This document shows, in pieces, positions 28,565 through 28,718 of a DNA stretch of 64,000 nt. The position numbers and the translations under genes are program-made. This DNA comes from an uncultured Pseudomonadota bacterium (GTDB taxonomy: Bacteria > Pseudomonadota > Alphaproteobacteria > Rs-D84). Where the stretch lies: positions 159,211 through 223,210 of the forward strand of contig OOHM01000002.1 in the NCBI GenBank assembly GCA_900320405.1, in the 5' to 3' direction. The notes under the pieces were generated by a model. The model was not told the DNA's origin and did no database searches. It saw nothing but the letters and a program-made list of their open reading frames with translations. Numbering within the stretch: position 1 is the stretch's first letter; each line of letters opens with the position of its first letter.

Positions 28565-28718
28565 GGTCGAAATAATCGTACCTTTTTGTCCAGTACTTTT
28601 TTCAAAAATTATTTTCAGTAATTTCAATATGTTAGGATTTAGTATAAGTACTGAACAAAAAGGTACCTTTAATGCCATAATACATGTGTATAAAACAAGC
28701 ACAAAAAAGGAAGGGGAT
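28565..28718 (+). repeat. Cassette copy at 28.57 kb (complete). It has 21-bp inverted-repeat arms (28577-28597 and 28647-28667) flanking a 49-nt AT-rich spacer, then a ~50-bp promoter/RBS region ending at the ATG at 28719.
   Basis: Near-identical to 52470-52620 and to the 5' part of 16667-16756. Confidence 0.75.

Follow-up and report, generated by a model that had tools for sequence, protein, structure and literature searches.

The question raised by this locus is what kind of element sets the same inverted repeat directly ahead of several related genes. A 64,000-nt stretch of contig OOHM01000002.1 (assembly GCA_900320405.1, positions 159,211–223,210 of the forward strand), from an uncultured alphaproteobacterium of the lineage Rs-D84 and referred to here as "the window," carries three copies of a cassette that is built around 21-bp inverted-repeat arms and that lies each time 5′ of a paralogous gene for a secreted protein. 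The original prediction, made from the letters of the window, had weighed a small mobile element, a long operator and a DNA or RNA stem. Comparison with related metagenome-assembled sequences leads us to hold with considerable confidence that the cassette is a promoter leader that has been duplicated, as opposed to an autonomous mobile element, an invertible segment or a structured RNA. The fuller statement—that it is a lineage-specific dual-operator promoter-leader module, duplicated and recombined with the 5′ ends of a family of secreted proteins—we regard as probable, with moderate confidence. On this account the cassette is a new instance of a familiar cis-regulatory architecture, and the 21-bp arms appear to be a lineage-specific by-product of two conserved boxes.

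An inverted-repeat cassette in three copies

The three repeated cassettes lie where they had been reported (copy A, 16667–16762; copy B, 28565–28718; copy C, 52470–52620), with copy A proving to extend to 16762, and they are 84–100% identical. All three have the same left arm, CGTACCTTTTTGTCCAGTACT, which starts at 16679 (A), 28577 (B) and 52482 (C). An arm search recovered the claimed architecture in B and C, namely a right arm that is the reverse complement of the left with two mismatches (28647–28667 in B, 52552–52572 in C) across an A/T-rich spacer of exactly 49 nt. Matches to the arm at up to three mismatches number five in the window, against 0.02 expected from shuffles. Copies B and C are near-identical from ~12 nt 5′ of the left arm, past the ATG and into the coding sequence, and the similarity of copy A to both ends within the inner right arm. 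Pfam agrees with the upstream genes as first named (FtsK for A, HlyIII for B, RuvX for C), and the downstream genes do encode secreted paralogues, which share a signal peptide and, near the N-terminus, a TVTSRxYVD..KQ region.

Two GTAC-centred boxes at a fixed distance

Related metagenome-assembled sequences supplied further cassettes (L011, which is the sequence of L026–29; L018–20; L030–31; L032; L033–34; L035; L036), and conservation was expressed as mean pairwise identity in an alignment of seven distinct variants (alignment A3). From 5′ to 3′, identity is 0.26 in the left flank, 0.62 in TGGTC plus the outer half of box 1, 0.90 in the box 1 core and inner half (i.e., the left arm), 0.80 in the central TCAGTAAnnTCAAT (in which TCAGTAA and TCAAT are invariant), 0.43 in the right spacer, 0.47 in the inner right arm, 1.00 in the box 2 core AAAGGTACCTTT and 0.94 in the leader block AAACAAGCA. 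When the arms are re-aligned between copies, then, the left arm is kept and the inner right arm is not. Because the right arm is poorly kept while AAAGGTACCTTT is invariant, the conserved item is not the arm but a 12-bp palindrome that lies across the arm's outer end.

The distance from GTAC to GTAC is 85 or 86 bp in 7/7 variants (~8 helical turns), despite divergent spacer sequence. Both boxes have a GTAC centre, A/T tracts on either side and TGGnCA-like ends, and their kinship is plainer in some relatives than in the window. Specifically, in L030 and L032 the two boxes are 19–20-bp direct repeats, 100% identical, each with a perfect 16-bp palindrome AAAAAGGTACCTTTTT; in L026 the direct repeat of the boxes (25 nt, 80%) is clearer than the inverted repeat; and in L035 the A-tract has become ATAAA in all four half-sites. 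Taken together, identity, spacing and direct repeats indicate that the 21-bp arms are the two inward-facing halves of related GTAC-centred boxes. The central motif resembles, by eye, the consensus of integration host factor (IHF) in some relatives (AATCAATGACTTA in L026, L030 and L032). The long-operator reading is thus the one that the comparison favours, with conservation peaking on two putative sites, the second of which overlaps the predicted promoter. The elements of copies B and C, with the ribosome-binding site (RBS) of each, are as follows.

28535–28559, + strand: terminator hairpin and T-run after hlyIII, ahead of copy B (terminator scan and sequence)
28564–28597, no strand: copy B box 1, made up of TGGTC, an A/T-rich outer half, a CGTACC core and TTTTTGTCCA, and including the left arm at 28577–28597 (arm search; the box 1 identity given above applies to 28578–28597)
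28612–28627, no strand: copy B central motif TCAGTAAnnTCAAT, halfway between the boxes (alignment)
28647–28681, + strand: copy B box 2 and predicted core promoter, with right arm 28647–28667, −35 TGAACA 28652–28657, invariant palindrome AAAGGTACCTTT 28659–28670 and extended −10 TG-c-CATAAT 28673–28681 (promoter scan; −10 offset fixed in 9/9 variants)
28693–28718, + strand: copy B leader, with the conserved AAACAAGCA block and the RBS AAGGAAGGGG at 28707–28716
52433–52458, + strand: terminator hairpin after ruvX, ahead of copy C; homology to L018 and L030 (other loci) starts here
52469–52620, + strand: copy C cassette, with box 1/left arm 52482–52502, right arm 52552–52572 and box 2 core 52564–52575
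52557–52562 and 52581–52586, + strand: predicted −35 and −10 of copy C (promoter scan), followed by the RBS and the ATG at 52621

A predicted promoter tied to the second box

A consensus scan predicts a sigma-70-like promoter in copies B and C (TGAACA or TGGTCA, 18 nt, TG-n-CATAAT) and gave no equivalent in the truncated copy A. When the same rule is applied to nine variants, the predicted −10 (CATAAT, TACCAT or TATAAT) begins 12–13 bp past the G of the box 2 GTAC in 9/9, with a −35 of the form TGnnCA, an 18–19-nt spacer, a TG extension of the −10 in eight of the nine and 35–40 nt to the ATG. With such a promoter, box 2 would be centred near −23.5, in the interval that separates the −35 and −10 elements, and box 1 near −108.5, and transcription would start 3′ of both arms. 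The leader of ~30 nt carries a strong RBS, AAGGAAGGGG, ahead of the ATG (28719 in B, 52621 in C). The earlier claim of a promoter, a strong RBS and an ATG in each copy therefore stands for B and C; it fails for A, from which all three have been deleted.

A second, diverged cassette in L026 (258–400, minus strand) bears on what the boxes do. Both of its GTAC cores have decayed (to GCAAC and TGTGCT), yet leader, RBS and MRIPILTF start are intact, and a promoter is kept as TGGACA-17-TATAAT, which is near consensus and is preceded by a TG. Boxes and promoter can thus be parted, and the joint loss of the two boxes fits a role as a regulatory pair and not as part of the core promoter.

Two other readings of the same bases were tried and rejected. 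A sigma-54 −24/−12 reading of box 2 (GG-N10-GC) has AGGTAC-N5-ATGC to fit it in the window copies, but the GC becomes GT in L018, L030 and L032; the spacing is 9 in L035 (alignment A3, by eye), and hence is not conserved either. The whole cassette is also an open reading frame (ORF) in phase with the genes downstream of B and C (ORFs 28563–29228 and 52459–53190). A coding reading is contradicted by loss of the frame relative to the ATG in L026 and L018 (by eye) and by the strong RBS that precedes the ATG, and the open frame is probably due to chance.

Dual-operator control as a candidate mechanism

From 5′ to 3′, the proposed module would comprise a terminator hairpin, joined in some copies by further GC hairpins, then box 1, the 49-nt spacer with its central motif, box 2, the ~30-nt leader with its RBS and the first ~12 codons of the signal peptide. 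We suggest that a dimeric or tetrameric regulator binds both boxes and that its occupancy of box 2 would gate RNA polymerase, most simply by repression. Box 1 would stabilise the complex through a DNA loop of ~85 bp, helped by the A-tracts and perhaps by an IHF-like central bend. The module would spread, and be replaced, through duplication and homologous recombination with one breakpoint in the signal-peptide codons, and would have no autonomous movement.

Promoters governed by looping between two operators include lac (O1 and O3 ~92 bp apart), gal (OE and OI) and the NagC-controlled nagE-nagB. What defines them, two related and phased sites of which one overlaps the promoter, has a putative counterpart in 7/7 variants here: the two sites are similar and partly palindromic, lie an integral number of helical turns apart and flank a bend-prone or IHF-like centre, with one of them over the predicted core promoter. 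The cassette differs in that its sites are putative, read from sequence, and in that their motif (A-tract, GGTACC, T-tract, TGGnCA ends) matched no operator that was found; it differs also in being duplicated at several loci together with paralogous genes. MerR-type promoters, in which a dyad operator is centred in an over-long −35/−10 spacer, offer a second comparison, as the box 2 palindrome lies in a sub-optimal spacer of 18–19 bp. However, its centre is ~2 bp off the middle of that spacer, a second box 85 bp 5′ is not a MerR feature and no MerR-family gene was seen nearby; MerR-like activation across the spacer would be a less likely variant of the mechanism.

Several observations weigh against the dual-operator account. 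Symmetry within the boxes is weak in the window copies, where only the inner halves match (scores of 16 vs. 3–6, with a null of 3.3 ± 1.7), and the distance from the TGGnCA end to the core varies from 13 to 16 bp. In L018 an extended dyad symmetry covers the whole ~120-bp region (60-nt arms, 78%), and two-sided changes in RNAalifold keep the outer-half pairing (8/25 pairs, mostly from L035); neither is required by a model of two operators, and the dyad symmetry is not fully explained. No DNA-binding protein gene, and thus no regulator candidate, adjoins any locus. The box motif was not found in the literature searched, and the box sequences matched only KpnI cloning primers. The promoter and the transcription start are predictions from consensus matching. 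A half-site comparison rejects two independent, strictly palindromic operators as the full account; because within-box symmetry is weak in the window copies, we describe the boxes as related GTAC-centred sites and not as strict palindromes.

Alternative explanations for the inverted repeat

The cassette was at first likened to a MITE, a miniature inverted-repeat transposable element, of the Correia type, and it does possess terminal inverted repeats (arms of 21–60 nt at 78–88% complementarity). The Correia repeat-enclosed elements of Neisseria resemble it further in length (~100–150 bp), in an IHF-type core, in a gene-proximal promoter at the element's end and in their place 5′ of a paralogous surface-protein family, opa (PMC2649163). 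Those elements, however, number ~120–250 copies per genome in many contexts and both orientations, and show presence or absence at otherwise alike sites (PMC2649163), whereas the cassette is present in few copies (1–3 in each piece of sequence seen) and a single context, faces its gene the same way in each of at least 12 independent assemblies, and has homology that continues into the coding sequence and the upstream terminator. In the window and ~130 kb of related loci, the box core was found solely 5′ of family genes, so that it was not seen apart from them. A scan for the arm as a 19-mer in 185,579 species genomes (596 Gb) gave 16 matches, against ~17 estimated by chance, of which one is real (L011; RUG12956); the JGI metagenomes held no match for the left arm or for the box1-N-box2 pattern, and IMG/VR held none. 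By eye, neither boundary (the arm ends or the TGGTC...ACCA ends) shows a target-site duplication in the window copies, L018 or L030. A precise empty site was not found, since L017, which has no cassette, shows a replacement that includes coding sequence. These results speak against a Correia-like mobile element. A relic of one—a ~120-bp palindrome with terminal inverted repeats, an IHF site and an outward promoter, inserted once 5′ of an ancestral gene and since copied with it—would account for a dyad that runs beyond the arms (36-nt arms in copy C, and the longer arms of L018), for outer halves that are alike in L018, L030 and L035 and for the IHF-like centre. Yet the missing duplications, the single context and orientation, the low copy number and the lack of an empty site tell against a relic too, and we consider it unlikely.

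Invertible promoters, such as fimS and the Bacteroides invertons, likewise have ~20-bp inverted repeats around a short A/T-rich segment 5′ of surface-protein genes, and secreted, paralogous, mosaic genes, at least one of them linked to a diversity-generating retroelement (DGR), are of a kind that is often phase-variable. A switch might act by recombinase inversion between the arms or by alternate methylation protection of the GTAC boxes, as pap does with its two GATC sites, which are also short, palindromic and at fixed spacing 5′ of a promoter; moreover, a natural OFF allele exists in the 86-bp deletion of copy A (below). That deletion is irreversible, however, and the segment between the arms, at 49 bp, is very short for recombinase inversion. 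The predicted −35 lies in the right arm and the −10 outside the segment, so inversion would alter almost nothing, and the spacer keeps one orientation throughout the three copies of the window and 15 sequences of related loci, which come from several samples (L018–20, L026–29, L030–32 and L033–36), with no inverted form in any assembly. A restriction or methylation signature at GTAC was rejected, as the tetranucleotide is not depleted (observed/expected 1.12) and gives no hint of a GTAC methylase or restriction enzyme; we judge phase variation by either route distinctly improbable. Lower still, and very improbable, is a structured RNA, with the arms paired as a long hairpin within an antisense transcript or a 5′ leader (an RNase III target or an attenuator, for example). 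The window copies do fold far better than shuffles on either strand (z = −5.3 to −7.0; −5.3 to −7.3 with L018 and L030 included, + strand only), and RNAalifold keeps the long-range helix; this strong folding follows from the inverted repeat itself. But a terminator lies directly 5′ of the arms and the sole conserved promoter 3′ of both, L026 has lost the fold (z = −0.84) while keeping boxes, spacing and promoter, and the inner right arm, which a stem would need, is the poorly conserved part. Facing the invariant left-arm GTCC, near-identical copies have GAAC (B), GGTC (C, L036) or GGAT (A, L033) in the right arm, three different mismatches without compensation, and the covariation term is just −0.59 kcal/mol. 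Rfam gave tRNAs only at gathering score across the window and eight loci, and only sub-threshold plant-miRNA-type hairpins at E ≤ 1 on the cassette. There may, finally, be no regulatory role at all, with the symmetry a neutral by-product (e.g., of palindromic duplication) and the conservation a matter of youth or gene conversion. This would suit the close identity of the window copies, the evident recombination among 5′ ends of the family and the one copy (in L026) that has decayed yet kept its promoter. The genomes, though, are ~70–80% identical here and conservation is strongly uneven, concentrated on the boxes and falling to 0.43–0.47 beside them, and the boxes stay 85/86 bp apart even as the sequence of the spacer changes; we find neutrality rather unlikely.

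Composition of the window as a whole is unusual in its own right. Relative to Markov expectation, GATC (0.16), CTAG (0.18) and CATG (0.32) are depleted window-wide; among dinucleotides the bias is extreme, with AG reaching just 0.37 and CT 0.31 of the expected level, and the trinucleotides CTC, GAG, TAG, GCT, CTA and AGC stand at 0.08–0.19 of expectation.

Exchange of the module among loci and genomes

Duplication of the whole gene-plus-leader unit, which the original prediction had raised, is borne out by homology that runs from the upstream terminator into the signal-peptide codons. Window copy A (after ftsK) and the cassette of L032 (after clpX) are ~90% identical over the terminator, two GC-rich hairpins and the sequence as far as box 1, and the similarity goes no further 5′ than the stop codon of the preceding gene. 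A similar terminator hairpin accompanies the C-type copies that follow ruvX (window), hlyIII (L018) and a clpB-like gene (L030), although hairpins of related form are present beside unrelated genes of the window as well. As a terminator module is common to different loci, the "housekeeping terminator" would travel with the cassette, at least for the A-type copy. The observation that each cassette starts after a terminator hairpin is thus upheld; the attribution of that hairpin to the housekeeping gene is not, at least for this copy, in which it belongs to the repeated unit. GC-rich hairpins of the form CCCCTTC-loop-GAAGGGG flank family genes on both sides in several genomes (positions 16617–16657 in the window; 5797–5840 in L032; 2717–2737 and 3719–3739 in L018; 3558–3578 and 3669–3689 in L021). 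Spread of this hairpin in the manner of repetitive extragenic palindromes was rejected, as the window has just one, 5′ of copy A.

Replacement is visible as well. L017, 84% identical to the window over 5.5 kb, has no cassette: its homology begins at window position 52634, within the signal peptide, and unrelated sequence stands in place of ~200 bp, among them the opening 13 nt of the gene, while the more distant L035 (80%) carries the cassette. At least five types of mature protein carry the cassette-type N-terminus MRI(P/S)ILTxGAIAS, and some of these types occur also with MSKK..., MKQALF... or other N-termini, and the hlyIII locus holds gene B in the window vs. a gene-C-type operon in L018. 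Four metagenome contigs end in or at the cassette, as would be expected of a multi-copy repeat.

Copy A records a loss. Metagenome contig L033 is 99.98% identical to window positions 16763–21235 (4,473 bp) and has the full cassette, RBS and ATG (protein P0073); relative to it, window copy A is deleted for 86 bp, with the junction at 16762|16763 when set against L033 1–170. The deletion spans from just 5′ of the right-box GGTACC to about codon 12 of the signal peptide, so that promoter, RBS and ATG are gone from copy A, as are ~12 codons and box 2's outer half. The gene A frame remains open (16750–17235), and neither an ATG, GTG or TTG start nor an RBS nor a promoter was found for it in the sequence or by promoter scan. 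Judged from this comparison, the deletion appears to be a very recent natural knock-out of gene A. The features concerned are as follows.

16583–16666, + strand: upstream module of copy A, a terminator hairpin plus the GC-rich hairpins CCCCTTCACGTTTCGTGAAAGGGG and CGCGGAACGCG, common to L032, where it follows clpX
16667–16762, no strand: shortened cassette of copy A, with box 1/left arm 16679–16699, spacer and inner right arm 16749–16762 (aligned to intact L033)
16763–17235, + strand: gene A remnant, frame intact but startless (intact orthologue P0073 in L033/L034)

The conserved signal-peptide codons GGTGCAATTGCATC (G-A-I-A-S) hold a 10-bp palindrome, TGCAATTGCA, at 28744–28753 and 52646–52655, ~84 bp 3′ of box 2. 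The copy A deletion ends at this palindrome and the L017 replacement has its breakpoint ~15 nt 5′ of it; these positions may reflect shared homology used in recombination.

The secreted-protein family and its link to diversity-generating retroelements

The genes that the cassettes precede belong to a family for which database searches found no Pfam, PHROG or PDB relative. All 84 homologues of gene C come from metagenome-assembled genomes of uncultured Alphaproteobacteria or from gut or rumen metagenomes, and no Pfam domain was found among them, bar one precomputed match on the truncated, 121-residue P0082. An AlphaFold model of a family protein (predicted local distance difference test score of 59) was too poor for a fold search. 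Besides the remnant of gene A, the window holds the following members.

28719–29228, + strand: gene B, a 169-residue secreted paralogue with a Cys-rich C-terminus (translation, tblastn paralogy; no Pfam or PHROG match)
52621–53190, + strand: gene C, a 189-residue secreted paralogue, first of a two-gene operon (translation)
53222–54256, + strand: fourth paralogue, 344 residues, 31 bp 3′ of gene C, with a homologue of a DGR variable region at its 3′ end, 54126–54250 (tblastn)

Family genes that lack the cassette (L021 2755–3000; L025 2755–3000; L023 2745–3000) have instead a conserved, GC-rich leader of ~230 nt, in which GTCGGGGTG...CACCCCGAC make up a long-range stem and a hairpin resembling a terminator lies just 5′ of the RBS; L017 1–185 aligns to its 3′ part only. 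This leader had no Rfam match and may be a new riboswitch or attenuator, a 5′ module used by these genes in place of the cassette.

In two relatives, L018 and L023, a gene-C-type gene is followed by a paralogue of ~340 residues, a conserved ORF of 110 residues and an RVT_1 reverse transcriptase. Repeats of 130–132 nt link the 3′ end of the ~340-residue gene, as variable region, to an intergenic copy, as template repeat, and mismatches between the two fall at template adenines only (13/13 in L018, 15/15 in L023); the sequence signature of a DGR, paired repeats plus reverse transcriptase, is thus present in both. The regions concerned are as follows.

L018, 4652–5109 and 5333–6567: DGR regions
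L023, 4452–4875 and 5132–6484: DGR regions

No template repeat or reverse transcriptase lies within the 64-kb window, and the full signature is therefore absent there. Compared with the L018 template, the variable region of the window (54126–54250) has 13 of 20 mismatches at template adenines. As this homologue lies in the 344-residue gene, copy C heads an operon with a probable DGR target, which would be either a remote target or an orphan.

Implications for expression of the family

One speculative extension, to which we give little credence, is that the module acts as a portable, terminator-insulated "expression head" (terminator, two-box promoter, leader and signal-peptide start) that is moved between paralogous loci. 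A switch protein peculiar to the lineage, or a regulator sensitive to methylation, would read the GTAC boxes and so give coordinated or stochastic ON/OFF control of a secreted repertoire that is in part DGR-diversified; copies that have lost the promoter, as window copy A has, would act as silent donors or OFF alleles.

For the dual-operator module itself, the comparison carries a more general lesson: an inverted repeat that is striking in one genome dissolved into two conserved boxes once relatives were aligned, which argues against reporting it as a mobile element. A promoter deletion between genomes that are otherwise 99.98% identical, together with mosaic exchange of 5′ modules, shows that expression of the family is rewired on very short time-scales. 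If the boxes are real operators, they would mark out a small, partly DGR-diversified regulon of secreted proteins in this uncultured lineage of gut and rumen Alphaproteobacteria, and the box sequence would provide a handle for finding its regulator.

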